The notes under the pieces are model-generated. The model made no database searches. It saw only the letters and a list, made by a program, of their open reading frames with translations, and was not told the DNA's origin. From contig VMER01000001.1 of the NCBI GenBank assembly GCA_007375645.1, forward strand, positions 209,211-273,210: 64,000 nucleotides of DNA. The letters run 5' to 3'. The translations under genes and the position numbers were made by a program. Origin of the DNA: Parcubacteria group bacterium LiPW_15. GTDB taxonomy: Bacteria > Patescibacteriota > Minisyncoccia > UBA6257 > 2-01-FULL-56-20. Shown here piece by piece: positions 10,693-49,606 of the stretch; the stretch's first letter is position 1, and the number at the start of each line of letters is the position of its first letter.

Positions 10693-10800
10693 GGTTTTCC
10701 CCTTTCAAGTTGCAACTTATTGCTGCGTTCATACTAAACTTTGAGTTTTTAAAAAACAAGAAAGGCCCCCGACGTGAGTCGGGAGCCAAGGTGCAGTGAA

Positions 10801-13596
10801 TCAGATGGGTTCGGGAAGGAACTTGTTCCAGTCGAAGTGTCTGGGCTTCGCGAACCAATCGCGGAGGTAGTCGTGCGGAAGCATCCGCATGAGGATCGGA
10901 CCGGCATCCGGCCCATCCGCAGGGAAGGACACGAAGCAGACTCCAGTGTTGTTCGGAGGGAATCCGCCAGTCGAGCCGTAGAGATCGGTGTGCACTCCGG
11001 CAGCGCAGATGGCATAAACTCCCTTCGAAGTCTCCACCAGGCAGTAGAAGTGCTTATCCCCTACGATGGTAACGACGAAGAACTTCATGAGCCCGTAAGT
11101 GTCGTCACCGCGGACATAGTCGCTCTTCACGAACGCAGCCAGGAGATCCGACCAGCTCGAAAGCTTGGGCGGAGAACCGAGGAAGCGAAGACCCCACTCG
11201 TACCTTCCGGGCGCCTTGATGGTGCCCAGGCCGAAGGTTTCGCTGCCGAATCGCGGGGCGCAAACGGCTTTCTCGAGGAAAGCCTCCTTGCCTCGCCAAA
11301 GCGGCGATGCCAGCAGTCTGGCCCGAAGATGCCTTGCGGGATACTCGCCTTCCAGATCCGCGCCATCCAACGTGTGGATGCGATGATTTCCGTTCGGGAA
11401 GTTCAGCACGCCCACATCGCGGGTGTCGGAGATCTTCTTGTTGATCTCGCTGACACCGCGGATGGTAAGACGAGACTTTTCGAAGCGCCGGAGAACCGCG
11501 CTGTAGAAATCCACGTTCGGGTCGATGTGCCGGTCGTAGACCTGCATCATCTGATGGAACGGAAAGTGATCGCCGCGAAGATGGTGCTGACTGATGCTGA
11601 TCCGGTTGACCTCTTCGGTCAGCCTGAGAACCGCACCCATGTCGCCTCGCTCCGCTGCGCGCTGGATGTCAGCGGTGATTCCCTGGAGCCAAGCCTCGAT
11701 ACGGATGAGCGGCATGACTTCAGGGTCCGGACGGTAAGTGGGATTGAACCACAGATTGCCGTCGGTCGCATCGTCCAACTCCGCCACCATGTGAACGGGC
11801 ATGTCGCTAGCGGTAAAGAGACCTCCACGACGCATGAGCTCGATTGCAGCCTCGTTGACACCGAGATGCATGCGCTGTTTGGGGTCCCAGATGAACCGTT
11901 TCGCCGAACCGCCGAAGTGGTTGTCGGTGTTGACGTAGACGTTGTAGTACTTCGTCTTGGGGTAAGGGAACGCGAAGTTCGTGCCAAGCACCGCTTCTAC
12001 CTTGCTCAAACTCTTGATGGGCAAGGAATCGACGCTCAGAATGCCGTTCGACAGACTGATGAAAAGCGCGCCCGGTTTGAACTGCGGATTGAAGATCGCC
12101 TTGGAGATGGGATGCATCTTCCTGGTCGAGTCGCGCAACGAATCCGTAAGGAAAACGTCGTCGACACAGATCGGCGCCACGTGAACGAACTTCGTCACCG
12201 GCATCCCATCCTTGGAATCCTCCCGACCGACAAGCCGGTGATTCAAGGCATAGGGATGACAGATGATCGTAAGGTCGGCCAGCGTGTCGTTGAAGACTTC
12301 GCTGCCGTACTTGTCGCCGAAATCGGCCAGGAGCTCGTCAGAGACCGCGTCCCTGCTCGGAACGTGAAGCTTGATGCTCTTGTCATGGAGCTTGAGATAG
12401 ACGTTGCCCTGGCTGATGACCTTGCAGTTCGGGATCGCTTTCTCGAACATGCCGACCACCATGGCTCGCAGACGCAGCCGCGTGAGTTCGACCAAACGAT
12501 CGGCAACGTTGGTGAGGATGATGCGCGCTCTCATCTCGGAGAGACGCTTGACCTCCAGCTCCCACTTGTTGGTGGCCGCAAGCCCGCGACGGTGCTTCAT
12601 GGCAGCCGCGAGCTGGCCCTTGGCCATGGAAAGCTCCGCCTCGACTCGTCCCTGCTTTTGGATGGTGAGGTAGCGGCACTCGCTTTGCGCCGCCTCCGCG
12701 ATGATTTCCTCCTCCCGATATCCGAACGCGACGTAGATCGGGCCGGGAAATTCCGGAGCTCCATCCGGTCGAGTGGCGATCTTCTGCCATCCATCCATGA
12801 CTTCGCCGAATTTCTCGGCAATGGTTTGGAAGATGAGCTCGCCAGGGGGCTGGTCGCGCAAGACGCGCTTGACCTCCTCACGATAGTACCTCGGGAACCG
12901 CGCGGGATTGATGCGGATTCCGGACACCGCCGCCCTGTAGACCTTGTTGGTCCAAACGGTCTTCTTGGTGTTCATGTCGATGGTGTTCGTGAGGATGACC
13001 GCATCGGCTCCACGGAGCCTGGCCCCGATCAGAGCCCGGCGAACCGGGTTGTCGGCGATGTTGCGATCGTACTTCAGTCCGATCAGCGCGCCGTTGATGA
13101 GCGCGATTCGCGCGTTGGCACCGCCGGGCAGAACAAAGGGCTCCTGAGGTGTGATCTTCGGAAATTCGAAGCCCTCGGCGCCGGCGGGAAGATCTTCCAT
13201 GCTCAGACGCCCAACGCCAGCGACGAACTTCGTCGTGATACTGGCGTTTGTCCGCCCGGTCAAAGACTTCACCTTGTCCTTCAGAAGCTTGGACGGGATG
13301 TAGGGGTAAAAGTCCTTGTGAAAACGCTCGATGGGAACGTTGTGCCGAACGGCTTTCCTCAGATCCTCGAGCACCTTGTGAGTCCAGAGGTGTTCGCGAA
13401 CCCTGCGGGCGAATTGGCGCATGTCCAGCCGATAGGAGTTGCCGGCAAGCTGCTCGGCAAACTCCTTACTGATGGCACCGTAGATCTCGGTCACGCCGTT
13501 CTTCTTCAGAAGGAAGCCTTCACGGATCAATTCATGAACTCTCGCAGAGAGTCCGGGAATCTTCCAGGCGTCTTTTCGTTTCGCTTTGGTAGCCAT
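10801..13596 (-). CDS. Large hypothetical protein (931 aa, high GC), possible phosphoesterase/nuclease-like motifs
   Basis: Protein-like composition on the minus strand versus low-complexity Arg/Asp antisense ORF on plus; GNH-like and GD-x-H motifs but no confident family; first gene of an operon with the 9457..10692 membrane protein. Confidence 0.6.
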   Translation of the reverse strand: MATKAKRKDAWKIPGLSARVHELIREGFLLKKNGVTEIYGAISKEFAEQLAGNSYRLDMRQFARRVREHLWTHKVLEDLRKAVRHNVPIERFHKDFYPYIPSKLLKDKVKSLTGRTNASITTKFVAGVGRLSMEDLPAGAEGFEFPKITPQEPFVLPGGANARIALINGALIGLKYDRNIADNPVRRALIGARLRGADAVILTNTIDMNTKKTVWTNKVYRAAVSGIRINPARFPRYYREEVKRVLRDQPPGELIFQTIAEKFGEVMDGWQKIATRPDGAPEFPGPIYVAFGYREEEIIAEAAQSECRYLTIQKQGRVEAELSMAKGQLAAAMKHRRGLAATNKWELEVKRLSEMRARIILTNVADRLVELTRLRLRAMVVGMFEKAIPNCKVISQGNVYLKLHDKSIKLHVPSRDAVSDELLADFGDKYGSEVFNDTLADLTIICHPYALNHRLVGREDSKDGMPVTKFVHVAPICVDDVFLTDSLRDSTRKMHPISKAIFNPQFKPGALFISLSNGILSVDSLPIKSLSKVEAVLGTNFAFPYPKTKYYNVYVNTDNHFGGSAKRFIWDPKQRMHLGVNEAAIELMRRGGLFTASDMPVHMVAELDDATDGNLWFNPTYRPDPEVMPLIRIEAWLQGITADIQRAAERGDMGAVLRLTEEVNRISISQHHLRGDHFPFHQMMQVYDRHIDPNVDFYSAVLRRFEKSRLTIRGVSEINKKISDTRDVGVLNFPNGNHRIHTLDGADLEGEYPARHLRARLLASPLWRGKEAFLEKAVCAPRFGSETFGLGTIKAPGRYEWGLRFLGSPPKLSSWSDLLAAFVKSDYVRGDDTYGLMKFFVVTIVGDKHFYCLVETSKGVYAICAAGVHTDLYGSTGGFPPNNTGVCFVSFPADGPDAGPILMRMLPHDYLRDWFAKPRHFDWNKFLPEPI

Positions 13597-13760
13597 TTGG
13601 CATACCTCCTTTTCGTTTCTTCTTTTCAGTTGTCAGGCTGCTGATTTCATTCTAGGCAAAACTGAGTCGACCGCAATAGCTCCGAAACAAATATGGATTA
13701 AAAACAAAAGCCCCGCGAATGTCGAGTGACTCTCGCGGGGCTTTTACAATTATTTTTTAT

Positions 13761-26998: not shown

Positions 26999-28381
26999 TT
27001 ACTCGAAAAACCTTTTCCCTCTCACCCGCTTATGATAAGTGATGGCAAAGCGATGAGCCTCGTCCCGCACTTTGGTTAGCGTGTTTTTGTCGATTCCTCT
27101 GGGAACGATGCCGATTATGTCCGTCCGCTTCCTATCCGGCCCCTTAACCATGCCAATGACCGGGATGCGCAAACCGTTCTCGTCCAAAACTTTTTTAACC
27201 GCGTTTATTTGTCCCGCTCCGCCGTCAACCAGGATAAGTTCGGGCAAGGGCCAGGAGTTTCCGAGACGCCGGCGGATGACTTCTTTCATCATCCCCACGT
27301 CCCCTCCTCCACTCTTAAGCGCGGAGCTACGGAGGGCAGGATTGGGTTCGGAAAAATTCTGAATCTTAAATTTCCGATATTCGTTCTTATCCGGTTCGTT
27401 TCCGGCGAAAACCACCATAGAGCCTACCGCGGACTCCCCGGAAATGTTTGAAATGTCATAACCCTCGATTCGGACGGATGACTTACTCTCTACGCTCGGC
27501 AACAGAGAATCTTCTTTTATGAGCGCGACGTCCTGAATGTGTTGTAACGCAAAGAGCTGTCTCTTTAATCTCTCCGCCTCTTCAAATTCCAGCTTTTTGC
27601 CGGCTCGGATCATTTCTTTCTTCAGATTTTTTATAAGTTTCTCTTTTTTGCCGGCGAAGAACATTTTTAACTTCCCGATGCGTTTTTTGTAATCCGCGCT
27701 CGTTATCGCACCGATACAGGTGCCGGGACAAAGCCCTATTTCATATTCAAAACAGGCGCGTTTGAACTTCGCGTCTTTGGGGTGTATTGACCACGGGAAA
27801 ATCTTTCTCAAGATTCTCATAGCCTCTTTGAGCGCAGAAGCAGACGTGAACGGGCCGTAAGTGGCGCTTCGATTTTTTCCTTTGCCCTCTCGAACCTGCC
27901 TGCCGGCAGGCAGGGCTTCAGCGGAGTAGGGTCGGGCCAAAAGATCCTTGCCACGGACCAAAAGCACCCGCGGGAACTTTTCTTTGGTAATTTCCACATA
28001 CAAAAAACTCTTGTCGTCTTTTTCGAGGACATTATATGGCGGTTGGATTTTCTTAATAAGTTCCGCCTCGAGTATCAACGCCTCTATCGCCGTATCCGTA
28101 TTCCGCGTTTCGATATCGCGGATCTCCCCTACCATTTTCTGAATACGGGGAGCGTGCCTACCCTCCGAAGCCTTACCGCGCCCTCCGAAACCTTGCGTGG
28201 AGGATGGGGCGAAGGAGGGGGGACGGTTAAAGTAGCTCGAAACCCGGCGCTTTAAATTCGCCGCTTTGCCAACATAAAGGATCGCGCCCTTTGCATCTTT
28301 CATTAAGTACACGCCCGGAGTGTCCGGCAAATCCCCACACCTATTGAAAAAATTTGTATTGTTTGGTTTATATCTAGCCAT
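26999..28381 (-). CDS. uvrC: Excinuclease ABC subunit C (UvrC; compact form with a low-complexity insert)
   Basis: GIY-YIG N-terminus (GVYLMKDAKGAILYVGKAANLKRR), UvrBC-interaction and endonuclease regions. Confidence 0.88.
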   Translation of the reverse strand: MARYKPNNTNFFNRCGDLPDTPGVYLMKDAKGAILYVGKAANLKRRVSSYFNRPPSFAPSSTQGFGGRGKASEGRHAPRIQKMVGEIRDIETRNTDTAIEALILEAELIKKIQPPYNVLEKDDKSFLYVEITKEKFPRVLLVRGKDLLARPYSAEALPAGRQVREGKGKNRSATYGPFTSASALKEAMRILRKIFPWSIHPKDAKFKRACFEYEIGLCPGTCIGAITSADYKKRIGKLKMFFAGKKEKLIKNLKKEMIRAGKKLEFEEAERLKRQLFALQHIQDVALIKEDSLLPSVESKSSVRIEGYDISNISGESAVGSMVVFAGNEPDKNEYRKFKIQNFSEPNPALRSSALKSGGGDVGMMKEVIRRRLGNSWPLPELILVDGGAGQINAVKKVLDENGLRIPVIGMVKGPDRKRTDIIGIVPRGIDKNTLTKVRDEAHRFAITYHKRVRGKRFFE

Positions 28382-29202
28382 TTGTAAATACTATTGAAAC
28401 AAAATTATCATAACCCCGCCACCAGTCAGATAAAACGGAAACCTGTTTTTCAATAGGTGTGGGGATAAATTTTGATACAGTTTTTTCTGGTCCATTGCGT
28501 ATGTAAATCCTATTTAATTTTTGCCAAAAAAAGAAGCCTTCCGGTGGTCCCCGATTTGAAGTCGGGAAGAACCGGAAGGCTGTGGGCTACCATGCAGCGT
28601 TGTCGGGGAGTTTATCCCCCTCGGGCATGTGGAGTTCCCTCCAAGAACAAGGGACACACCTCACACACGGCTGCATACCCGTCGGCGAGCGAGACATAGT
28701 TTTTGATTTCTTGACCTACCCTTAGGGCGGCCTCTTTTTGTGCGAAGTCTCTGTCGCCGATTTCGAAGAGCTGGCCGATTATACCACAAACTTCCCGCAA
28801 AAATCCCTGGACCTATGTATCCCGAGGTCGCGGCGAGCAGGGTCACACGCCGTTACTCCCTCACATTTTCGCCGTGAGCAGCTAGCCAATTCGGTCGGGG
28901 GCCCGGCTGGGCTGCCCTCCTACCCTGATTCCTTCGAAGCCGACCGGGCATGGCCGAAGCCCATCAGGAACCATTACCGGAGAGTATAGCATGTCCCTAG
29001 AAAATGTCAACCCTGTCACCAGATCAAGCGCAATCGGCTTGTTTGCCCGACCAGTCTAACCCGCCTCAATAATCCGTCGCCTTCCCCAAAAAACATAAAA
29101 ATCATTTAATTTGCGCCGATACAAAAGGGCTAGCGCTTGGCTCGGTGCGGGGTCAACCCCGTCACCAAGTCGACTACCTACCACCTGCTACTTGCTACAT
29201 CA
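28382..29202. other. 820-bp ORF-free, relatively GC-rich intergenic region; candidate structured ncRNA(s)
   Basis: No ORF over 85 aa in six frames; hairpins throughout; 16-nt direct repeat GTCAACCC(T/C)GTCACCA at about 29017 and 29151. Confidence 0.3.
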
Positions 29203-30063
29203 CTAGTCTTTTTGATACAAAATAAAATCGACAAATCTCTCGAACGGAGATTTCTCCGGCAATTTGGCGTGCGCCGCCTTCGCGATATCTTTTAAATTAG
29301 CGCGCGCTTCTCTATAGCCTTCGGCAATTATGTCCGCGGTTTGGCCGAAATCCAACCAACTATGGTGGGTTACCGCAGGCTTCAAAATTACGTTTGCATC
29401 TTTCACGTGTTCCTTTGCCAATTGATACTCCGCAACCTGCAGAGAATTTTCTATCATAGAACGTATATTGGTCAGTTTTACCTCCTGTTCGAAAATATTT
29501 ACCCAGCGAGAAGAAACATCTACGGCGATGACTATATCCGCGCCCATCCTCCGAACAACATCCGCGGGGACGGGATTCGAAAACGCTCCGTCCACGAGAA
29601 GTTTCTCCCCTATCTTCACCGGCTTAAAAGCCAAGGGTAAGGAGCTCGAAGCTTTTATTGCCAAAGCGAGGCTCCCGGAATCCATAACGGTTTCCTCGCC
29701 ATTACTAACATCCGTGGCAATGGCCGCGAATTTAACATCGCATTTTTCTATCTGCCGGTGAGCAAGTTTCTTTTCCAGGCGCGACTGCATCTCTACATCA
29801 TTAAAAAGAACTCCGTCGCCCCGGGACATTATTTTCCTGGGCGAAAGGGTTCCCTTTTCTCCAAGTTTCAAAAATAGTTCTTCGAGTTCGCTAAGCGGAT
29901 GACCGGCGGCATACCAACCCCCGACGACCGAACCCATACTGGTACCGGCGATGATTTCCGGCTTTATCCCCGCCTCCAAAAGCGCTTTTAAAACGCCGAT
30001 ATGAGCGAGGCCTCTGGCGCCTCCTCCGCCCAGTGCGATTCCGATCTTTTTATTTTTACGCAT
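29203..30063 (-). CDS. Patatin-like phospholipase (RssA-like)
   Basis: GGGARG oxyanion hole, GTSMG serine nucleophile, DGA/G aspartate motif. Confidence 0.9.
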   Translation of the reverse strand: MRKNKKIGIALGGGGARGLAHIGVLKALLEAGIKPEIIAGTSMGSVVGGWYAAGHPLSELEELFLKLGEKGTLSPRKIMSRGDGVLFNDVEMQSRLEKKLAHRQIEKCDVKFAAIATDVSNGEETVMDSGSLALAIKASSSLPLAFKPVKIGEKLLVDGAFSNPVPADVVRRMGADIVIAVDVSSRWVNIFEQEVKLTNIRSMIENSLQVAEYQLAKEHVKDANVILKPAVTHHSWLDFGQTADIIAEGYREARANLKDIAKAAHAKLPEKSPFERFVDFILYQKD

Positions 30064-30224
30064 TGCTCTCTAATTTTATAACTTTTACGCGGAAAAAACA
30101 GGAGGCATGAATATTTTAAAAATGCTTGTTTTCTATACCACAAGAGACGTAGAATGTGGACGAATCTGCCACATCGGCAATGATTCAAGTTCCTTCACAA
30201 TAAAAAGAAGAAAGGAGGCGGGTT

Positions 30225-32927
30225 ATGGAACTCCGCGCAGGAACGACGCTGGTCACAGCGTCCGATCTCGTGAGCATTCCGAACCAGTCTCCTCAATTCA
30301 GAGACTGGGCTTGGTATCAGCTAAACTTCGCCCCCGAGCACCTGGACGACATCGTTTCGGCCCTTCTTCAAAAGGATAAGGGCACGAATGTCCGGGAAGC
30401 CCTGGAATATCTGAATGACTTCCTCGGCGGACACCCCGCTACCGGCGAACGCCTGAACGCAAGCGACATCACCGGAGAGAATACCCAGAGCGCGTTGTTC
30501 AAAAAACTGCGCGTTCTGCTCGGCAAGGATTCCGGCGCGACTAACCCGGATGTTTATCGTTTTCTGGGACAAGTCGGCCATAAATTCATGCCGCTATTCC
30601 TCGGAAGTCAGCGGTTCCCAAGAACCGAATACAAGTTTGGCGGGCCGCTGGCCCAACGATCCCTGTTTCAGAAGCTGGTAGACGAGGAAGACGGACAAAA
30701 AATCCTCTTCCCGTTCCTTGCCGACCAACAGTTTGCCAAATCGGAAATCAAAGATCCGAACCGATCGCAACTGCGGCAGAGCTATGCTCTCTGGAAAAGG
30801 ATCGCGGAGAACGTCAAAGACCACAGCCTGACAGAACTGTACTCCAAACACGGACCAAAGCTCGACCGGCTGACCAGGATGTTGAAGCGAGAGTTTGCTC
30901 CCTATTCCTCGGAACTCGAGGCGCAAAGGGATGCAAAGTCCGAACTCGTGACTCTGAGCCTGATGAGCTGGGTGAGCGCCGTCGAACTCAAAGAACGGCA
31001 GCCCCGCATTTTCTTCACGGAGATACCGGTCCTCGACCGGCATCATCGGCTCGGAGCTTGGAGGATCGATGCCGCAGAAGTACGAACCATTGAAGGCAAA
31101 GCGCCGACGCCCAAACAAAGGGCTAAGCTCAGGGAACTCAGCCTCACTCGGTTCACTTCTGTTGGCCATCTGCTCCAATCGCTTATCTCCTTCTTTGGAG
31201 AAGAGCTGGAGCTCGGCATCTGGGACTGGAAGTTCGCGATTGGCGACGGCGCCCCAAAGCGCGTCATCGATCCGAGAACCATGGTTCAGGATGTTCTCGC
31301 GGAACACACGCGCCAGATACAGCGATATCTGATGCTCGGGAGCCTGGACTGCCACTTAACCGGGCGGCCCCGCGCGAAAACTCTCTGGCATGACGACTAT
31401 TTCTTGCGCGGAACTCTGGCATATTTCTTCCCGACGCATCGGCCGATACTCGAGCAAATAGTCATGACTCCGGAATTGCACAAACAGATCTTCGAAGAAG
31501 AAGTGTTGATGCGATTCGGGAGTGCGAAACAGCGCGCGAAGCTAAGAGAACTGACGAGCCAAGTAGTCGGCAACGTCTTCGCTCTCTGGAACGGAAACGG
31601 AAAGCCGAAGAACGGTTCCGCGCATAAGCCAACCCCGCAAGTATCGCTTTTTGAAGAGCCCTCCGACAAACCGCGTTCTGCTCTTCATTACGTTGAGCAG
31701 ATGCAAAAACCGATTTTCCTCGAAGGCTCGCACGGGCTTCTGGAGGTCGTGGGGCTCGGTGAGGGCGGACGCAAGCGTTACGAACTCCGCCTGGACACGA
31801 TGCTCAAACGGATCGAGGAAGGCGTGATCTCCGGACGAAATATCGGGCAGGGCTGGCTCATTTCCTGTCCGCATCCGGATCACGACGACTCTACGCCGTC
31901 TTGCGCGGTCTATCTCACCGGACACTTTCACTGCTTTGGATGCAAGAACTCCGGCAAGATCGCGGCTGGTTCAATTCCAAAAAATATTGAGCTTGTCCCC
32001 GATCTGCGGCAACAGCACGAGCGAATGCGCCAAGGCACAACGAATGCTCTGGTTCCGGAAAGACATCGCGAGGTCATGCGCACCGTTCAGGCCCATCTCT
32101 CCGCCAAGTTCAGAAACAGTCCGGCCGAACGATATCTTGCGCATGAGCGCCGTCTGGATCCGGAACTTGCCGCGTCTTTTGGCGCCGGATACGGCAGCAA
32201 CGAACTCATTTTGGATCTGCTCCAAGACGGCGTAAGCTACGAGGAGCTTATCCATTACGGTCTGGTGGGAATCTCACCAAAAATGAAACCCTCCAGCCTC
32301 TTGATTCGATCATTACTCCAGAAAGGCTATTCTTTAGAGAGCCTCGGCAGGGAGCTAAAAGTACCGGGCGGCAAAAACGTCTCGGGCCTCCCCTATCCTT
32401 CGCTCTCGAACCGGATAACCTTCCCACTCATGACCGAAAGCTGGGTAACCAGCGTGTACGGAAGGGCCATCTATGCTTGCGACAAGCAATTCTCGCATCG
32501 CAAGCTCACCATTAAGTACACGGGCGTTCCCCACGGCGCTTTCAATGTGGCCGCGCTTAACGCGCCCGGTAATGATCTCATCGTTACCGAAGGCGTGATG
32601 GACGCGCTCTCCCTGATCGAAGCCGGAGTGCCGAACACGCTCGCGCTCATCGGGGTTCAGAACACCGTAATCCTCGAAGCCCTGGAACGGTCGCGCAAGA
32701 AGCTTTGGATCGCGCTCGACATCGACGAAAATAAGTCGGGACAGAACGCGACCGCAAAGATAATCGAACGATTCAGGTCGCGCGGCGTGCCCGTGGGCGA
32801 CTTTACCGCCAAGTTCGCCGCAAGACTCACCGAACAGTACAAGGACTACAACGCCTGGTGGCAGGCATCCGGCCGTCATCTTTCTCTTAACGACCGGGCA
32901 GCTCTTCTCGCTCTTTCCGAAGCGTGA
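30225..32927 (+). CDS. DnaG-like primase-family protein: CHC2 zinc finger plus TOPRIM fused to an unknown 500-aa N-terminal domain (high-GC cassette)
   Basis: CPHPDHDDSTPSCAVYLTGHFHCFGCKNSG is a DnaG-type zinc ribbon; VTEGVMDALSL...ALDIDENKSG is TOPRIM; AAGGAGG RBS; hairpin terminator at about 32930-32960. Confidence 0.72.
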   Translation: MELRAGTTLVTASDLVSIPNQSPQFRDWAWYQLNFAPEHLDDIVSALLQKDKGTNVREALEYLNDFLGGHPATGERLNASDITGENTQSALFKKLRVLLGKDSGATNPDVYRFLGQVGHKFMPLFLGSQRFPRTEYKFGGPLAQRSLFQKLVDEEDGQKILFPFLADQQFAKSEIKDPNRSQLRQSYALWKRIAENVKDHSLTELYSKHGPKLDRLTRMLKREFAPYSSELEAQRDAKSELVTLSLMSWVSAVELKERQPRIFFTEIPVLDRHHRLGAWRIDAAEVRTIEGKAPTPKQRAKLRELSLTRFTSVGHLLQSLISFFGEELELGIWDWKFAIGDGAPKRVIDPRTMVQDVLAEHTRQIQRYLMLGSLDCHLTGRPRAKTLWHDDYFLRGTLAYFFPTHRPILEQIVMTPELHKQIFEEEVLMRFGSAKQRAKLRELTSQVVGNVFALWNGNGKPKNGSAHKPTPQVSLFEEPSDKPRSALHYVEQMQKPIFLEGSHGLLEVVGLGEGGRKRYELRLDTMLKRIEEGVISGRNIGQGWLISCPHPDHDDSTPSCAVYLTGHFHCFGCKNSGKIAAGSIPKNIELVPDLRQQHERMRQGTTNALVPERHREVMRTVQAHLSAKFRNSPAERYLAHERRLDPELAASFGAGYGSNELILDLLQDGVSYEELIHYGLVGISPKMKPSSLLIRSLLQKGYSLESLGRELKVPGGKNVSGLPYPSLSNRITFPLMTESWVTSVYGRAIYACDKQFSHRKLTIKYTGVPHGAFNVAALNAPGNDLIVTEGVMDALSLIEAGVPNTLALIGVQNTVILEALERSRKKLWIALDIDENKSGQNATAKIIERFRSRGVPVGDFTAKFAARLTEQYKDYNAWWQASGRHLSLNDRAALLALSEA

Positions 32928-32973
32928 TTCCCCTCCCGGGGAACCACGCTTCTTTTTTTATTTCAAAATAATT

Positions 32974-35511
32974 TTACTTTCCCTGTTTAAGCACGTGGCG
33001 AAGATACTGAGCCGTAAAACTCTTTGGATTTCTCGCTACTTCTTCCGGCGTTCCCTGGGCGACAATTTCTCCTCCCCTTTCTCCGCCCTCGGGCCCGAGA
33101 TCGATAACCCAGTCCGCGCTTTTAATGACATCCAAATTATGTTCAATGACTACCACGGTGTTCCCCCGGTCCACCAAGCGCTGTAAAACAACGAGAAGCT
33201 GCTCGATGTCCGCAAAGTGAAGTCCGGTGGTCGGCTCATCCAAAAGATAAAGTGTTTTGCGGGTATCACGCTTGCCGAGTTCCGCTGCGAGCTTAACGCG
33301 TTGCGCCTCTCCGCCCGAAAGCGTGGTCGCGGATTGTCCGAGCTCCAGATAACCCAAGCCGACTTCTTCCAGAATACTCAATCGGTCTTTAAGCCACGGA
33401 ATGTCGTCGAAAAACTTGTGCGCCTCTTCGATGGTCATCTTAAGAATGTCGTAAATATTCTTTCCTTTGTATTCCACCTCCAATGTTTCCCTATCAAACC
33501 GCTTTCCCTTACAAATATCGCACTCCACGTAGACCGTGGGCAGAAAATGCATTTCGATAGCTAAGGTCCCATGGCCTTCGCAGTTTTCACAGCGTCCGCC
33601 GGGCACGTTGAAGCTGAACCGGCCCGGTTTATAACCTCGAACTCTCGCATCTTCGGTAGTCGCGAAAAGATCCCGGATAAAAGTCCAAGCGCCGACGTAA
33701 GTGGCCGGATTGGACCGCGGAGTGCGGCCTATCGCTCCCTGGTCGATATTAATGACCCTGTTCATATATTCCAATCCCAGAATGGATTTTACCGCTCCGG
33801 TCTTGATGCCTTCTCCAAGCTCATGGAATTTGCGGGCGATGTTTCTATGAAGCACGTCATAAACCAACGTGGATTTTCCGGAACCGGAAACACCGGTCAC
33901 GGCCGTAAACCTCCCGAGCGGAATATCCACATTTATATTTTTTAAATTATTGGCCGAAGCTCCGCGTATCTTTATCGCTTCTTTGTCCTTGGAAACTTTT
34001 CTTCGGATTTCGGGAATTTCTATCTCCCGCTTCCCGCGCAAAAAATCCAAGGTGAGCGAGTTTTGAGTCTTGTCTTTAAGCAGTTCCGGCATCGGTCCTT
34101 GGGCAATGACCCTGCCGCCGTGCACGCCCGCCCCCGGCCCGAAGTCCACCAAATAATCCGCGGAACGGATAGTATCCTCATCATGCTCCACTACGATCAC
34201 GGTATTTCCCAGATCCCGCAGTTTCTCGAGTGTTTGAATGAGTTTCGCGTTATCTCTCTGGTGCAAACCAATAGTCGGCTCATCCAATATATAGAGAGTT
34301 CCAACCAGCCTGGAACCTATCTGGGATGCCAGGCGAATACGCTGAGCCTCCCCGCCCGAAAGCGTACCGGCCTTGCGGCCCAAAGTCAGATAATCCAAAC
34401 CCACATCCAAAAGAAATTTCAGTCTGGCTTTGATCTCCCGAAGAGGCGCCTCGGAAACTTCTTTAAACCTTTCGTTGCGATTCGAGAAGCTCATGTCGCC
34501 GAAGAATTTGTTGGCTTCTTCGATGGACATATTTACCACTGAATTTATATTTTTGTCTTTGACCAAAACGCTCAAAGCTTCTTTTTTTAAACGCTTACCT
34601 TCGCAAACGTCGCAAAGGTCTTCGGACCAAAGTTCTTTGACGCCCAAACCGTGGCAGGTCTCACAAGCGCCGTAAGGGCTGTTGAAAGAAAATAACCGCG
34701 GTTCGATCTCCGGGAACGAAAAACCGTCGTTGGGGCAGGTGAATTGCGCGGAAAGCGAAACCTCTTTATCGGTTAAGACAGTCAAAACGTTCTTACCGTA
34801 TTTCAAGGCGGATTCCACCGCTTCCGCGAGGCGCAAGCGGTTGTCTTTATCTTTAAAATCCATCCCGCCCGGAATTCTGTCGACTACAAGTTCAATGGTG
34901 TGCTGTTTGTAGCGCGCGAGCTCGATCCGCTCATGAAGCGAATGCATTTTGCCATCCACGCGGACCTCTCTGAAGCCGGCGTTTAAAAGATCGTAAAGCG
35001 TTTGATAATATTCTCCCTTTCTTCCGCGGATCACAGGCGCCAAGATCAAAAGATTATTTTTCTTCTTGTCCTCTTTGGAAATTTGAATGACTGCGTCCAC
35101 GATCTCTTCATTGGTCATCTTGCGAATTTCCGTTCCGCACTCCGGACAATGAGGAGTTCCCGCGCGCGCGAAAAGTACGCGCAGATAATCATAAATTTCG
35201 GTGATGGTCGCGACCGTGGAACGAGGATTCGAAGAATGGCTTTTCTGGTCAATAGAAATCGCCGGAGACAATCCTTCTATCTCATCCACGTCCGGTTTCT
35301 CGAATCTTCCCAAAAATTGTCTGGCGTAAGCAGAAAGGGATTCTATATATCGCCTCTGTCCTTCGGCAAAAATGGTATCAAAAGCCAAACTGGATTTTCC
35401 CGAGCCGGATAGTCCCGTCAAAACGGTCATCTTATCCCGCGGAATTTCCAGGTTTATGTTTTTGAGATTGTGCTCTCTGGCTCCTCTTATTTTGATTTTG
35501 TCTTGTGCCAT
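32974..35511 (-). CDS. uvrA: Excinuclease ABC subunit A (UvrA, compact 845-aa form)
   Basis: Two ABC ATPase modules ([18 protein letters not shown]) and zinc-finger Cys motifs. Confidence 0.95.
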
Positions 35512-35820: not shown

Positions 35821-35992
35821 CTGTGTGCTAGAAAAAAGGGCGGATTTAGGTCAACCCTTATTGCACCTCGAAAAGAAAGCGAAAGGAGAGATGGAATGGT
35901 GAGTTGAGAATCTAACTTCAACCGCCGCTCTAAGTCCCTATCCGATCGTCTCAAACCCCGATCTGAAACGAATTCTACAAAAGGAGAAAAAA

Positions 35993-37642
35993 GTGAACAT
36001 CATCAAGAAGTTCACGGTTCTCGTGGCTCTCGCACTCCTCGTCTGCACCGGGACGGCCTACGCGGCCGATCCGCCGCGTCATCCCGTTCCCGTCGGTGAA
36101 CCCGAAGACGCCACAACCGTCATCGGGCACCAAGGGCGCACGGAGCTGCCCTTTCCGAACCCCGCCAACAACACCCTGTACAAGGCGCTGATCGGTGGGC
36201 CGTGTTGGCTCATCGACACCAGACTGGACTCGAAGTTCGACCCGCCGTACGGAAACAAGTCGGGTCAGCTCGGCGACTTCGTTTCCGGCGAGTCGAGGGC
36301 GTACCGCTTCGGCGGTCACCTGCTCGATCTGCCGCTCACGAACCCGTGCAACGACCTGATTCCGAGTTCCGGCGTCGTCGCCCTCAACCTGGAAGTCCAC
36401 ATCTACACGAACGGCCTCGTACCAGGCGGAGTGTTCTTCGAGAACACCCGCTTCGTCCCCGAACTGTGGTCGGCAACGGCGCAGGTCGGGCAGACAGCCT
36501 TCCTGATCTACGAGAAGGACAAGCTCAGCGACTTCATGCCCGGCTTGGTCCAGATCGGCCCCGCTTCGATATACGAACTCGGCGGCCAGTCCTTCCGGCT
36601 GAAGAACGTCGGGAACAGCATCGACGTCGCCGTGAAGATCAATGGCTACTTCACCGAGGACAAGACCGTCGGCAAGGGTGGTCCGGCCGGCAAGGACGGC
36701 GTGTCCTGTTCCGTCGTGCAGACCAACGACCTGTCCTATAAGATGACCTGCGGTGACAAGATCGTCGCCGAATGGTGGTCCGGCAAGGACGGCAAGCCCG
36801 GCCTCAGCGGCCCGCAGGGAGAACCCGGACCCGTTGGCCCGCAGGGGAAACCCGGACTGAACGGTGGCCCGGGACCTCAGGGCCCCATCGGACCCACGGG
36901 ACAGACCGGAGCTACCGGACCGCAGGGACCCATCGGCCCCACGGGAGCGACCGGACAGACCGGACCCATCGGACCGATCGGACCCACCGGTGCCACGGGA
37001 GCAGTCGGACCCATCGGACCGCAGGGACCCATCGGACCCACAGGGCAAACCGGAGCTACCGGACCCATCGGACCGATCGGACCCACCGGTGCCACGGGAG
37101 CAGTCGGACCCATCGGCCCCATCGGACCCACGGGAGCAACCGGACAGACTGGCCCCGCTGGCCCGACTGGCGCTACCGGACCCATCGGCCCCATCGGTGC
37201 CACCGGCCTGACCGGACCGCAGGGCCCTCAGGGAAATCCAGGACCACAGGGGCAGAAGGGTGACACCGGCAATACCGGTCCAGCGGGACCCATCGGCCTC
37301 ACTGGCCCGGGTGGCCCCGCTGGCCCAATCGGACCCATCGGCCCCGCGGGTCCGCAGGGACCCCCAGGCGTCTGCGCCTGCCCGATCTCGTCCGGCACCA
37401 TCGTCTTGAACTGCCCCAGCGCGCCGGAACCGGAAATCAACGGCCGCGAACCGAACTGCGTAACCTGCGCGAAGACGGTGAGCAACGCCGACATCAAGTC
37501 CTGGAGCAACGTCATCTGCTCCTACTCCGGCGGCCCTCTCGCGAGTGACGCGATTCCCTGTCGCGTATACAACGTCCAGAACGGCTCCTTCAAGGTGGAA
37601 GGAATGGCCGGACAGACCATCACCTGGATGGCCAAGAACTGA
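35993..37642 (+). CDS. Secreted collagen-like protein: signal peptide, about 240-aa globular domain, about 190 aa of G-X-Y triplets, Cys-rich C-terminal domain
   Basis: GTG start after AAGGAG; signal [16 protein letters not shown]; about 60 contiguous Gly-X-Y triplets ([16 protein letters not shown]...); 8 Cys in the C-terminal 90 aa; high GC. Confidence 0.8.
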
Positions 37643-37672
37643 TCTCCTTTCGTCGACAGTCATCGCTCTTTC

Positions 37673-37700
37673 GCGGGCCCTTCGGGGCCCGCCTTTTTTT
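37673..37700 (+). terminator. Intrinsic terminator GCGGGCCCTTCGGGGCCCGC plus T7
   Basis: Seen directly. Confidence 0.6.
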
Positions 37701-37793
37701 GACAAAATTATTTAAAACAGGCATCATTTTGCGAGCGAACGCAACTTGATTCCTGAACGGGCAATATCGCCCACAAACAGAAGGAGAGAAAAA

Positions 37794-46839: not shown

Positions 46840-47613
46840 TTAAAACTTTTTTACACACACATACAGAAATAGCGGAATCTCTTTGCGAGCCTTATTTTCG
46901 GCTTTTGCACGAGGCCCGGGTTGGCTCACCTTGCCCGAATTCCATTCCTCAAGCTTGGTAACGGCGAGTCTAAGCTTTGAAAATATCTTGAAGTAATACT
47001 GCAACGGCCGATGAAACGAAACGGTAAACAAGTCTGGCGCATCGCCGGGGTGCATCTGTATTTTATTTTTTGATTCCGAAAGGTATTCGTCGATCCGCCT
47101 ATACTGAATTTTGTTTTCGTCATCGTATCCCCAGGAGGTTACCTTCGGGTTACGAAAAACCGGATGATTCATAACCAGATGAAGGCTGCCGCCGACCTTC
47201 AATATCCTGGCACATTCACTCAAGACTTTATCCACGCTCTCAATGTTCTGCAAAGCAAGCACAATGACAATCTTATTTATGCTAGCGTTTTTTATAAAAG
47301 GTAAAGATTCGGCGTTGGAAACCTGAAATTCCCCTTCCGGGGCTGATTCCCTAGCAACACCGATCAACTCAGAAGATATATCTATCCCTAGAACTTTCGC
47401 GCCTGCTTTGATAAATTCCTTGCTGAAAAACCCCGGCCCGCAAGCCAGGTCCAAAATCTTATCTCCGCGCTTAATATCCATGAGCCGCAAAAGATTCGGG
47501 AGTATGACCTCTTTTTGATAAGTCCCCTCCCCGGAAAGGAGTTTCTCATACCACTTGGCCACCCCGCCCCAAGAAGTCTTATTTCTTTCTTCCATCTTTT
47601 TTAATTTTAGCAT
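46840..47613 (-). CDS. Class I SAM-dependent methyltransferase
   Basis: LDLACGPG SAM motif I; start may be the internal MEERNK (47595), which would give a small overlap with uvrB. Confidence 0.8.
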   Translation of the reverse strand: MLKLKKMEERNKTSWGGVAKWYEKLLSGEGTYQKEVILPNLLRLMDIKRGDKILDLACGPGFFSKEFIKAGAKVLGIDISSELIGVARESAPEGEFQVSNAESLPFIKNASINKIVIVLALQNIESVDKVLSECARILKVGGSLHLVMNHPVFRNPKVTSWGYDDENKIQYRRIDEYLSESKNKIQMHPGDAPDLFTVSFHRPLQYYFKIFSKLRLAVTKLEEWNSGKVSQPGPRAKAENKARKEIPLFLYVCVKKF

Positions 47614-49606
47614 CTTTCTCCAGCTTATTTGTTTTCTTCATAAGCTCCCGTATCTCATCACGTAAAATAGCGGCAAGCTCAAAATCCAATTCCTTAGCCG
47701 CTAATTTCATTTCCCTTTCCTTGTCTGCGATGAGTTTCAAAAGCGCGGTCTTGGAACGCGGCATTGGTCCGGTCTCCAATTTCAATATTTCCTCAACTGG
47801 CAAAATATCCCGTATTTCTTTGATAACCGTGGTCGGAGTTATGTTGTGCTTCTTGTTATATGCCAGCTGGATCTCGCGTCTGCGGTTGGTTTCTTTGATA
47901 GCCCGCTCTAAAGAACCGGTTATGTGGTCCGCGTACATCAAGACCTCGCCCGCAACGTTTCTAGCCGCACGTCCGATGGTTTGGATAAGCGAAGTTTCGC
48001 TCCGTAAAAATCCCTCTTTATCTGCGTCCAGTATTGCGACCAGTGTTACCTCCGGCAAATCCAATCCTTCGCGCAAAAGGTTCACCCCGACCAGCACGTC
48101 AAAATTGCCTTTACGCAGATTGGTAAGTATCTTAATGCGCTCCAAGGTCTCCACGTCGCTATGGAGATAATTCACCTTGATGCCCTTGCCGGCAAGATAT
48201 TCCGTAAGGTCCTCCGCCATCTTTTTGGTAAGAGTCGTGATAAGAACTCTCTCTTTTCTGGCCACCCTCTCTTCAACTCTGGGAATCAGGTCCTGCACCT
48301 GGCCCTTGGCCGGCAGAATGGTTATTTTGGGGTCAACCAGCCCGGTCGGACGAATTATCTGCTCCACAATTTTTTCGCTCACTTTTTTTTCATAAGGGCC
48401 GGGGGTCGCGGAAGTAAAGATTATTTGGCCGACGCGCTTATTGAACTCCTCAAAACGCAAAGGCCGGTTATCCGCCGCGGACGGCAATCTAAATCCATAT
48501 TCAATAAGAGTCTTTTTGCGCGCCGCATCGCCCTCAGACATTCCCCCGATCTGGGAAACAGTCACGTGAGATTCATCGATGACGGTTAAAAAGTCCGGCT
48601 CCCCCGATTCAGTATGAGGAAAATAATTGAGCAGTGTATCCGGCGCCTCGCCTCTCGCCCGGCCCGAAAGCGGCTGGGAATAGTTTTCTATACCGTGGCA
48701 ATATCCGACTTCGCGGATCATCGCCAGATCGAACTTCGTTCTCCGCTCCAACCTTTCCGCCTCCAACAACTTTCCGTTTTCTTCAAAGTACTTGAGTCGT
48801 TCTTTTAATTCTTTTTGCACCGCGGCAACAGCCCGCTCCCTGTCGATCGGCGAAGTTATAAAGTGTTTGGCCGGAGCGATGTATATTTCCGGAAACTCGG
48901 GAGTAACACCCGGGCGAAAACCTTCCGCCGGAATTATTTCGTATATCTTTTTGATAACGTCGTCTTCCAGAACAAAGTTGTAGATAAGTTCCCTGTCCGG
49001 CGGCATTATCTCCCAGTTGTCTCCGCGCAAGCGAAAACTCCCCCGCGTGAGGTCGCTTGGCGTGCGGGTAAACTGCATGGAGATAAGCTGTCTCGTAAGC
49101 GCTTTCCTGTCTATCTTTTCGCCCACCGCGAAACGGATGATATTTTTTGCGTAGGTTTCCGGCGCGCCCAAACCGTAGATGCAGGAGACGGAAGCCACAA
49201 TGATAACATCCTTGCGGGTCAGCAAAGCAGTCGTCGCCGCATGGCGCAGCTTATCTATCTCTTCGTTTATCATCGCCTCTTTTTCAATATACGTATCGCT
49301 CGTGGGCATATACGCCTCCGGCTGATAATAATCGTAGTAGGAAACGAAGTAGTGCACCGCATTTTTCGGAAATATTTCCCGGAACTCGTTGCAAAGCTGG
49401 GCGGCCAAGGTCTTGTTATGGGCGATAACCAAAGTCGGCTTCTGCGCCTCGTTTATAACGTTCGCAATGGTAAATGTTTTTCCCGAACCGGTCACGCCCA
49501 AAAGGGTTTGATGCCGCAAGCCGTCTTCCAATCCCAAGACAAGCTCTTTTATAGCCTTGGGTTGATCACCGGATGGGATGTTTTTTGAAATAAGTTCGAA
49601 CTTCAT
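47579..49606 (-). CDS. uvrB: Excinuclease ABC subunit B
   Basis: Helicase motifs GVTGSGKT, DESH; UvrB beta-hairpin and C-terminal UVR domain. Confidence 0.95.
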   Translation of the reverse strand: MKFELISKNIPSGDQPKAIKELVLGLEDGLRHQTLLGVTGSGKTFTIANVINEAQKPTLVIAHNKTLAAQLCNEFREIFPKNAVHYFVSYYDYYQPEAYMPTSDTYIEKEAMINEEIDKLRHAATTALLTRKDVIIVASVSCIYGLGAPETYAKNIIRFAVGEKIDRKALTRQLISMQFTRTPSDLTRGSFRLRGDNWEIMPPDRELIYNFVLEDDVIKKIYEIIPAEGFRPGVTPEFPEIYIAPAKHFITSPIDRERAVAAVQKELKERLKYFEENGKLLEAERLERRTKFDLAMIREVGYCHGIENYSQPLSGRARGEAPDTLLNYFPHTESGEPDFLTVIDESHVTVSQIGGMSEGDAARKKTLIEYGFRLPSAADNRPLRFEEFNKRVGQIIFTSATPGPYEKKVSEKIVEQIIRPTGLVDPKITILPAKGQVQDLIPRVEERVARKERVLITTLTKKMAEDLTEYLAGKGIKVNYLHSDVETLERIKILTNLRKGNFDVLVGVNLLREGLDLPEVTLVAILDADKEGFLRSETSLIQTIGRAARNVAGEVLMYADHITGSLERAIKETNRRREIQLAYNKKHNITPTTVIKEIRDILPVEEILKLETGPMPRSKTALLKLIADKEREMKLAAKELDFELAAILRDEIRELMKKTNKLEKDAKIKKDGRKK

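Follow-up and report, generated by a model that had tools for sequence, protein, structure and literature searches.

LiPW15_268, a predicted RecB-type nuclease joined to a DnaG-type primase in Patescibacteria

The gene between patatin and uvrA

We analysed a stretch of 64,000 nucleotides, here called the window, from the genome of Parcubacteria group bacterium LiPW_15 (GenBank assembly GCA_007375645.1, contig VMER01000001.1, positions 209,211 to 273,210 of the forward strand), and in it a gene whose product is identical to the deposited hypothetical protein LiPW15_268, encoded on a contig of 481,644 bp (Table 1). This protein almost certainly combines a RecB-type nuclease with a DnaG-type primase, the active-site residues being intact in both. 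A model that had read the letters alone (the original prediction) placed the gene by itself between patatin and uvrA and gave it a ribosome-binding site and a terminator of its own. All of this was confirmed. The patatin gene is divergent and uvrA convergent, a ribosome-binding site precedes the start codon, and the terminator hairpin has a folding energy of −24.7 kcal/mol, with z = −7.5 against shuffled sequences, and is followed by seven U. The 160-bp spacer upstream of the gene contained no consensus sigma-70 promoter, and no direct or inverted repeats were found flanking it. The description of the gene as rich in G+C did not hold up: its G+C content of 0.559 compares with 0.501 ± 0.047 for the 21 other genes of the window, a distance of 1.2 standard deviations (SD), and two other window genes exceed it.

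The nuclease half and the primase half

LiPW15_268 was modelled with AlphaFold2 from an alignment of 71 sequences (predicted local distance difference test score, pLDDT, 86.4; predicted template modelling score, pTM, 0.73); a single-sequence model with a pLDDT of 35 was discarded in favour of it. In the N-terminal module, the model showed the alpha-beta core fold of PD-(D/E)xK nucleases, with beta-strands at residues 263–268, 280–289, 328–337, 395–401 and 408–413, and a disordered insert at residues 134–176. The conserved motif residues mapped to the strands 263–268, 280–289 and 328–337 and to the helix 359–378, and folds like those of RecE and lambda exonuclease occurred among the structural neighbours. 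When the whole-protein model was searched with Foldseek against PDB and viral structures, the primase half dominated the matches.

The putative active site is strongly conserved. Among 97 fused and about 40 stand-alone members of the family described below, G115/H119, E266, D282, D/E334, K336, Q364 and Y368 were 94–100% conserved and, together with these, D81, R280, S312, G340, D341, H361 and Y400 were near-invariant in both length classes. In the 97 full-length members, position 334 was D or E in 96, K336, G340, D341 and Y368 were each present in all 97, Q364 in 94 and H361 in 90. We take G115-xxx-H119 to be motif I of the RecB family, with the histidine as a metal ligand, and the series GxxxH ... 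E ... D ... (D/E)xK ... QxxxY to be the motif set of RecB/Cas4/lambda-exonuclease-type PD-(D/E)xK nucleases; the QxxxY element is typical of RecB, Cas4 and lambda-exonuclease nucleases. From motifs and model, the N-terminal ~455 residues are predicted to be a Mg-dependent PD-(D/E)xK nuclease of the RecB/Cas4/Dna2/MGME1 type. The original prediction had seen no recognisable motifs in this half, which is true for the profiles of Pfam, NCBIfam and PDB, which see nothing there, but not for the RecB-type motif set and fold. Cas4, Dna2, AddB and Exo5 hold a 4Fe-4S cluster with four cysteine ligands. No cysteine was conserved anywhere in the N-terminal half of the family, neither in the 71- nor in the 97-sequence alignment, and the module would therefore lack the cluster of the Cas4/Dna2/AddB subgroup.

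The C-terminal half starts with the CHC2 zinc finger that had been predicted. Pfam Zn_ribbon_DnaG (PF01807) matched residues 538–578 and was found in 51 of 54 family members; the ligands C548, H553, C570 and C573 were invariant or 92% conserved across the family, and a profile search matched the zinc-binding domain of PDB entry 1d0q with E = 6e-10. In the RNA-polymerase domain that follows, DNAG_N gave a weak Pfam match, a family-specific insertion of ~40 residues occupies positions ~681–720, and HRKL stands where canonical DnaG has KYxNSPE. The TOPRIM domain, likewise predicted, was best matched in Pfam by Toprim_2 (PF13155, residues 786–876, E = 1e-11, 45.5 bits against a cut-off of 22.1) and Toprim_3 (36.8 bits, cut-off 27.2), found in 41 and 26 of the 54 members, respectively; matches to Toprim_2/3/4 together spanned residues 785–883. 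A check of its catalytic residues, suggested along with the prediction, showed them to be intact: E789 was conserved to 99%, D834 and D874 to 98% and N876 to 89%, and D832 was likewise conserved. Overall, the CHC2 ligands, the basic residues R642, R730, R747 and K760 and the acidic TOPRIM residues E789, D793, D832, D834 and D874 were 85–100% conserved in the 97 full-length members. At the sequence level, the DaN motif of these members has D874 in 95, an aromatic residue at 875 in 67 and N876 in 86, whereas its fourth position is acidic in only ~30 and is alanine in LiPW15_268.

The primase half aligned with residues 5–355 of a 601-residue canonical DnaG from the Candidate Phyla Radiation (CPR) and the alignment stopped there. 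LiPW15_268 ends ~20 residues past TOPRIM while the canonical CPR proteins run ~230 residues further; both the C-terminal helical subdomain and the DnaB-binding domain are thus missing, the latter as had been predicted, and without this helicase-binding domain docking on DnaB is impossible. Neither PF10410 nor PF08278, the helicase-binding side of DnaG, was matched by Pfam in LiPW15_268, nor was any ATPase domain. The equivalog model of replicative DnaG, TIGR01391, aligned over residues 540–877 with 66.1 bits against a cut-off of 283.6; the best PHROG match was phrog_47, annotated 'DNA primase', with 80.7 bits. According to Iyer et al. 2017 (PMC5512222), the DnaG-like primases of mobile elements for which the Pfam profiles Toprim_2/3/4 stand are catalytically active and have a 'DaN-' motif as their common mark. 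By these similarities, the C-terminal ~400 residues are a predicted DnaG-type primase made of zinc ribbon, RNA-polymerase subdomain and TOPRIM, and its type is the helicase-independent one known from mobile elements. An N-terminal sensor attached to a TOPRIM effector, as originally suggested, does not fit this picture of a catalytic nuclease in the N-terminal half and a full primase in the C-terminal half.

Table 1. Positions of the gene, its signals and its modules in the window, and of two features beside relatives (L numbers denote loci of the family, each with its own numbering)
Feature	Position	Strand	Remarks
Coding sequence of the nuclease-primase fusion, complete	30225..32927	+	900 aa; from the list of open reading frames; in GenBank, hypothetical protein LiPW15_268, Parcubacteria group bacterium LiPW_15
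Ribosome-binding site AAGGAGG	30212..30218	+	6 nt before ATG; read from the sequence
Intrinsic terminator	32919..32959	+	bulged 14-bp hairpin across the stop codon, then T7; RNA fold
N-terminal module, aa 1-455	30225..31589	+	helical region, then predicted RecB-family PD-(D/E)xK nuclease core
Motif G115-xxx-H119	30567..30581	+	invariant: 97/97 full-length, 36/36 alignable short members
E266 ... R280-x-D282	31020..31070	+	acidic residues on core strands 1 and 2; E266 in 96/97, D282 in 97/97 full-length members
(D/E)334-x-K336, then G340-D341 (IWDWKFAIGD)	31224..31247	+	(D/E)xK catalytic motif; strand 328-337
H361 ... Q364-xxx-Y368 (HTRQIQRY)	31305..31328	+	QxxxY motif; helix 359-378
DnaG-type zinc-binding domain, aa ~486-590	31680..31994	+	CHC2 ligands C548, H553, C570, C573; Pfam, PDB profile
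DnaG RNA-polymerase domain, N-terminal subdomain, aa ~606-780	32040..32564	+	~40-aa family-specific insertion, HRKL
TOPRIM domain, aa ~783-880	32571..32864	+	E789, D793, D832-x-D834, D874-Y-N876; Pfam Toprim_2/3
Vicinity with canonical dnaG-rpoD	L002 4264-7298 and 9389-9850; L013 8302-11226		beside family member
~280-307-aa reading frame after family member	L011 7105-8028; L014 6557-7471; L017 8807-9655; L021 9797-10642; L030 2740-3624; L049 2520-3377	member's strand	

With replicative DnaG (TIGR01391; PDB 2au3, 1dd9, 5guj), LiPW15_268 shares the CHC2 zinc ribbon, the RNA-polymerase domain and a TOPRIM domain with catalytic E and DxD. Besides the missing C-terminus and the replaced KYxNSPE, it differs by a D-aromatic-N motif (D874-Y-N876) in place of DPD, by the extra insertion and by a 500-residue N-terminal nuclease module. 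With the DnaG-like primases of mobile elements (Toprim_2/3/4 clade; RP4 TraC1, ColIb/R64 Sog; PMC5512222), it has in common the best Pfam matches, a DaN-type motif, helicase independence without a DnaB-binding domain and the fusion to another enzymatic domain. Those primases, however, reside on conjugative elements with a type IV secretion system (T4SS), whereas the family of LiPW15_268 lies on CPR chromosomes, and neither plasmids nor phages yielded a member; a RecB-type nuclease was not among the fusion partners that we found described for them (PMC5512222).

On the nuclease side, the RecB-family PD-(D/E)xK enzymes Dna2, AdnA/AdnB, AddA/RecB, MGME1, Cas4 and RecE/lambda exonuclease show no detectable sequence-profile similarity to the N-terminal half, which has a large helical N-terminal region and the disordered insert, and whose partner is a primase and not a helicase or Cas1. 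The Dna2 nuclease-helicase, AddAB/AdnAB, Nhi-type immunity proteins and LigD-type fusions follow a shared logic, a RecB-type nuclease for single-stranded DNA (ssDNA) tethered to a second activity that engages ssDNA. In them the second partner is an ATPase motor, a ligase or a polymerase; in LiPW15_268 it is a primase. In OLD-family TOPRIM nucleases such as Gabija GajA, the TOPRIM domain is preceded by an ABC-type ATPase, whereas LiPW15_268 has no ATPase and its TOPRIM follows a zinc ribbon and an RNA-polymerase subdomain. The searchable literature yielded no description of a RecB/Cas4-DnaG fusion. Each of the two superfamilies is familiar, and it is their combination that appears to be undescribed.

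The family and its genomic neighbourhoods

LiPW15_268 is not the orphan that it was thought to be. An exhaustive phmmer search with residues 1–525 against 1.84 billion cluster representatives returned 166 of them at E ≤ 1e-3 and 53 at E ≤ 1e-30. A word-indexed homologue search with the full protein, the N-terminal half or the family profile as query had returned the protein itself or ordinary DnaGs only. It had missed an entire family of ~170 clusters that was found by exhaustive HMMER search alone, which is why 'only self' from an indexed search should not be taken as orphan status. The lengths of the relatives are bimodal, ~95 falling between 850 and 1000 residues and ~26 between 450 and 550. 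Most relatives belong to the longer class and have the architecture of LiPW15_268; about a quarter of the family consists of the nuclease only. Family members are mutually only 25–40% identical.

The nuclease and primase modules are separable, and the short members retain the full catalytic motif set. At locus L018, the gene encodes the nuclease only, in 508 codons, and just 2 bp separate its stop codon from a gene that converges on it. The fused form occupies L012, a locus in synteny with L018, and the downstream gene is ~80% identical between the two; ~1.37 kb of primase half in L012 is matched by only ~180 bp at the equivalent place in L018. A convergent gene of 257 codons (L018 1748-2521, L012 1720-2493, minus strand in both) carries Cas4/RecB-like motifs, recognised by eye (D...DLK...QTSAY). 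L012 lies at the start of a contig of a Yanofskybacteria metagenome-assembled genome and matches query residues 327–878; L022, at the end of another contig of the same genome, matches residues 15–343, and the two look like one gene split over two contigs.

In a scan of 185,579 species, one genome each, by two sequence patterns and tblastn, 19 loci were found, all of them in Patescibacteria/CPR. The carriers were Paceibacterota, Nomurabacteria, Yanofskybacteria, Minisyncoccia, bins labelled Saccharibacteria and one single-cell genome; a scan of metagenomes added 31 loci. The two patterns detect 60 of 150 listed representatives, a sensitivity of ~40%, and the family is therefore probably present in a few dozen species, that is, rare. 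Scanned likewise by patterns and tblastn, 2.9 million viral contigs gave no relative, and neither 50,697 phage genomes nor 72,556 plasmids contained a tblastn match to the N-terminal half.

We surveyed the three nearest open reading frames (ORFs) on each side of 37 non-redundant loci, 144 proteins in all. The neighbours were mainly housekeeping genes: FAD/pyridine-nucleotide oxidoreductases, FtsZ, YceG, MnmA, AMP-binding enzymes, ABC ATPases and, twice each, patatin and GIY-YIG proteins. ORF clustering across all loci revealed no universally conserved neighbour. Integrase, transposase and phage families were absent from the 25 most frequent Pfam families of the 144 neighbours and no T4SS recurred among them, nor did any defence family recur by PADLOC, whose scattered matches were mostly generic ATPase/helicase cross-matches, besides one PycTM and, at no more than two loci, MADS genes. 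The PycTM gene, with an effector domain of the Pycsar type, is found directly upstream of the family member at L002. Two candidates for a partner in a common system were rejected. Patatin adjoins a member in 2 of 37 loci only, in the window and in L023 (4888-5835, minus strand), and since its orientation differs, divergent in the window and convergent at L023, this adjacency is probably a coincidence. An ORF of about 300 codons downstream of the member is confined to one sub-clade and absent from the window; it starts ~110 bp past the member, shows a GIY...YIG-like motif by eye with no Pfam match, and may be a lineage-specific partner.

Two unrelated genomes, one represented by L002/L009/L045 and the other by L013/L035, have a canonical dnaG-rpoD pair no more than 4 kb away from the member; this DnaG has 570–600 residues, a DnaB-binding domain and rpoD as next gene. 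Replicative dnaG typically adjoins rpoD, whereas the LiPW15_268 gene lies outside any dnaG-rpoD operon. Because members coexist with the canonical pair, the family represents a second, primase-like gene: an accessory gene and not the replicative primase. This agrees with the original prediction of a primase-like protein distinct from housekeeping DnaG. The gene of LiPW_15 is stand-alone, chromosomal and in all probability accessory, and in everything found the family is restricted to Patescibacteria/CPR.

The surroundings in the window are of the same housekeeping kind. An aminoacyl-tRNA synthetase, MnmA, BipA, a cupredoxin protein, UvrC and patatin precede the nuclease-primase gene, and UvrA, a collagen-repeat protein, QueA, Tgt, UvrB, a P-type ATPase and SecA follow it. 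Within the 64 kb there was neither an integrase, transposase or phage gene nor a second dnaG or an rpoD. The genes uvrC (26999-28381), uvrA (32974-35511) and uvrB (47579-49606) are all contained in ~23 kb, with the nuclease-primase gene between the first two; the adjoining patatin-like phospholipase gene occupies 29203-30063 on the minus strand. About 820 bp separate the uvrC start from the patatin stop (28331-29203) and contain one ORF of 83 codons and otherwise none of at least 80. Here we found a perfect 21-nt inverted repeat (28331-28351 and 28446-28466, spacing 94 nt), a near-palindrome (28535-28581) and a sigma-70-like promoter on the minus strand with an 11/12 match (29010 to 28983); an Rfam search of the stretch gave no match, and it may be a regulatory region or an uncharacterised RNA. 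The collagen-triple-helix-repeat gene (35993-37642, plus strand) has an unusually high G+C content of 0.66, and an antisense ORF (35975-37705, minus strand), created by the periodicity of the Gly-X-Y repeat, spans all of it. Another ORF of ~950 codons, with a G+C content of 0.58, is open on both strands (10774-13644, plus; 10801-13596, minus), and neither translation matched Pfam.

Possible cellular role

We favour the explanation that LiPW15_268 is a single-chain, two-enzyme DNA-processing protein with a role in gap or break repair or in restart on ssDNA. To this whole statement, including the role, we assign a probability of about 0.45; the cellular role taken by itself is proposed tentatively. 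The closest relatives of the nuclease (Dna2, MGME1, the nuclease domains of AdnAB/AddAB/RecB, and Cas4) all have ssDNA ends or flaps as their substrates, and the template of DnaG-type primases is ssDNA as well. Because of this, both modules would most plausibly share one stretch of ssDNA as substrate. The nuclease would trim or cleave an ssDNA end or flap, the primase would lay an RNA primer without a replisome, and a DNA polymerase would then fill in from this primer. The likeliest role would be the repair of gaps or breaks, or restart on ssDNA, possibly including ssDNA taken up from outside, in genomes without the larger repair machines. The analysis shows which domains are present, that their active sites are conserved, how the family is distributed and that it is accessory, whereas what the protein acts on, how its activities are coupled and what it does in the cell are inferred. 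An accessory role in DNA maintenance is favoured because the genomic contexts are housekeeping and no signal of defence or mobile elements was found. A wider formulation, which we regard as somewhat doubtful, would see here a hitherto undescribed, CPR-restricted class of enzymes in which RecB-type cleavage of ssDNA ends or flaps is coupled to helicase-independent RNA priming in a minimal, replisome-free form, serving repair and restart or the handling or destruction of incoming ssDNA, with the nuclease as a RecB-like subfamily undetected by current profiles.

The original prediction had pointed to a role in defence or in replication of a mobile element. Neither found positive support in the housekeeping contexts of the 37 loci and the lack of viral, phage or plasmid relatives, although both keep some probability because the family is rare and patchy. 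A single-gene anti-invader defence, in which the primase/zinc-ribbon module would recognise foreign ssDNA or the replication intermediates of phages, plasmids or incoming DNA and the fused nuclease would destroy them, has analogues in nuclease-helicase immunity proteins. Such a system would suit the scattered occurrence over several CPR lineages, a stand-alone gene with its own signals in variable neighbourhoods, the slightly raised G+C content (1.2 SD), the membership of the primase in the Toprim_2/3 clade associated with mobile elements and conflict, and the PycTM and MADS genes near a few relatives. PADLOC also matched LiPW15_268 itself with an RT-DnaG-like model (RTasDnaG-like, 56 bits; RT_UG29, 26 bits), but these matches came over the primase region only, by primase homology, and no PADLOC model fits the nuclease half or the full architecture. 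Together with the non-recurrence of any defence family among the neighbours, the housekeeping flanks in the window and the lack of an evident module by which a constitutively active ssDNA nuclease-primase would tell self from non-self, this makes defence an unlikely function. We consider it improbable that the protein is a domesticated or remnant replication or establishment protein of a mobile element, such as a plasmid or phage primase with a recombination exonuclease, now chromosomal. The best profiles of the primase half (phrog_47, Toprim_2/3), the DaN motif and the RecE/lambda-exonuclease-like folds would fit such an origin, whereas the searches of viral contigs, phage genomes and plasmids, the neighbourhoods without recurrent integrase, transposase, T4SS or phage genes and the lack of flanking repeats do not. 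A decaying remnant is further argued against by the strong conservation of both active sites among members that are only 25–40% identical.

A very improbable reading by analogy would be an RNA-processing enzyme, in which the DnaG/TOPRIM module would bind or cleave RNA in the manner of RNase M5 or of the DnaG of the archaeal exosome, and the PD-(D/E)xK module would be an RNase. That LiPW15_268 could be the housekeeping replicative primase of LiPW_15 with an unusual N-terminal accessory domain is suggested by the lack of another dnaG in the window, yet it is hardly credible in view of the missing DnaB-binding domain and C-terminal subdomain of the RNA-polymerase domain, the TIGR01391 score far below its cut-off, the occurrence in only a few dozen CPR species, the canonical dnaG followed by rpoD beside two relatives and the existence of nuclease-only forms.

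Several observations also weigh against the repair and restart role that we favour and against the assignments on which it builds. No model of Pfam, NCBIfam, PADLOC or PHROG covers residues 1–520, none of 54 members had a Pfam match in its N-terminal half at E ≤ 0.1, and the family profile matched only primases among the PDB sequences; Foldseek gave only a weak match to MGME1 (E = 0.15). Since no sequence profile recognises this half, the nuclease assignment rests on fold and motifs. In the primase half, the divergence of the KYxNSP motif and the 40-residue insertion mean that true primer synthesis is not guaranteed. The accessory status was derived from relatives, LiPW_15 having been read over 64 kb of the 481-kb contig. 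The adjacency to uvrA and uvrC is not conserved in relatives, nothing ties the gene specifically to repair, and a rare and very patchy distribution typifies defence or selfish genes no less than it does accessory repair genes. As this distribution suits defence equally and the uvr adjacency is not conserved, our preference for a maintenance role is weak.

In conclusion, the analysis yields a solid gain in annotation and a reasonable target for biochemistry, with no new principle. The new RecB-like nuclease family, invisible to profiles, comprises about 170 clusters at 50% identity and would be a candidate entry for Pfam or InterPro, and L012 and L018 offer a natural pair of fused and nuclease-only forms for a study of domain gain or loss. 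The family also gives a helicase-independent DnaG-type primase outside mobile elements. The fusion is rare and its carriers are ultra-small CPR bacteria; if both activities are coupled, it would be a compact, replisome-independent machine for processing ssDNA from minimal-genome bacteria whose DNA metabolism is poorly understood.

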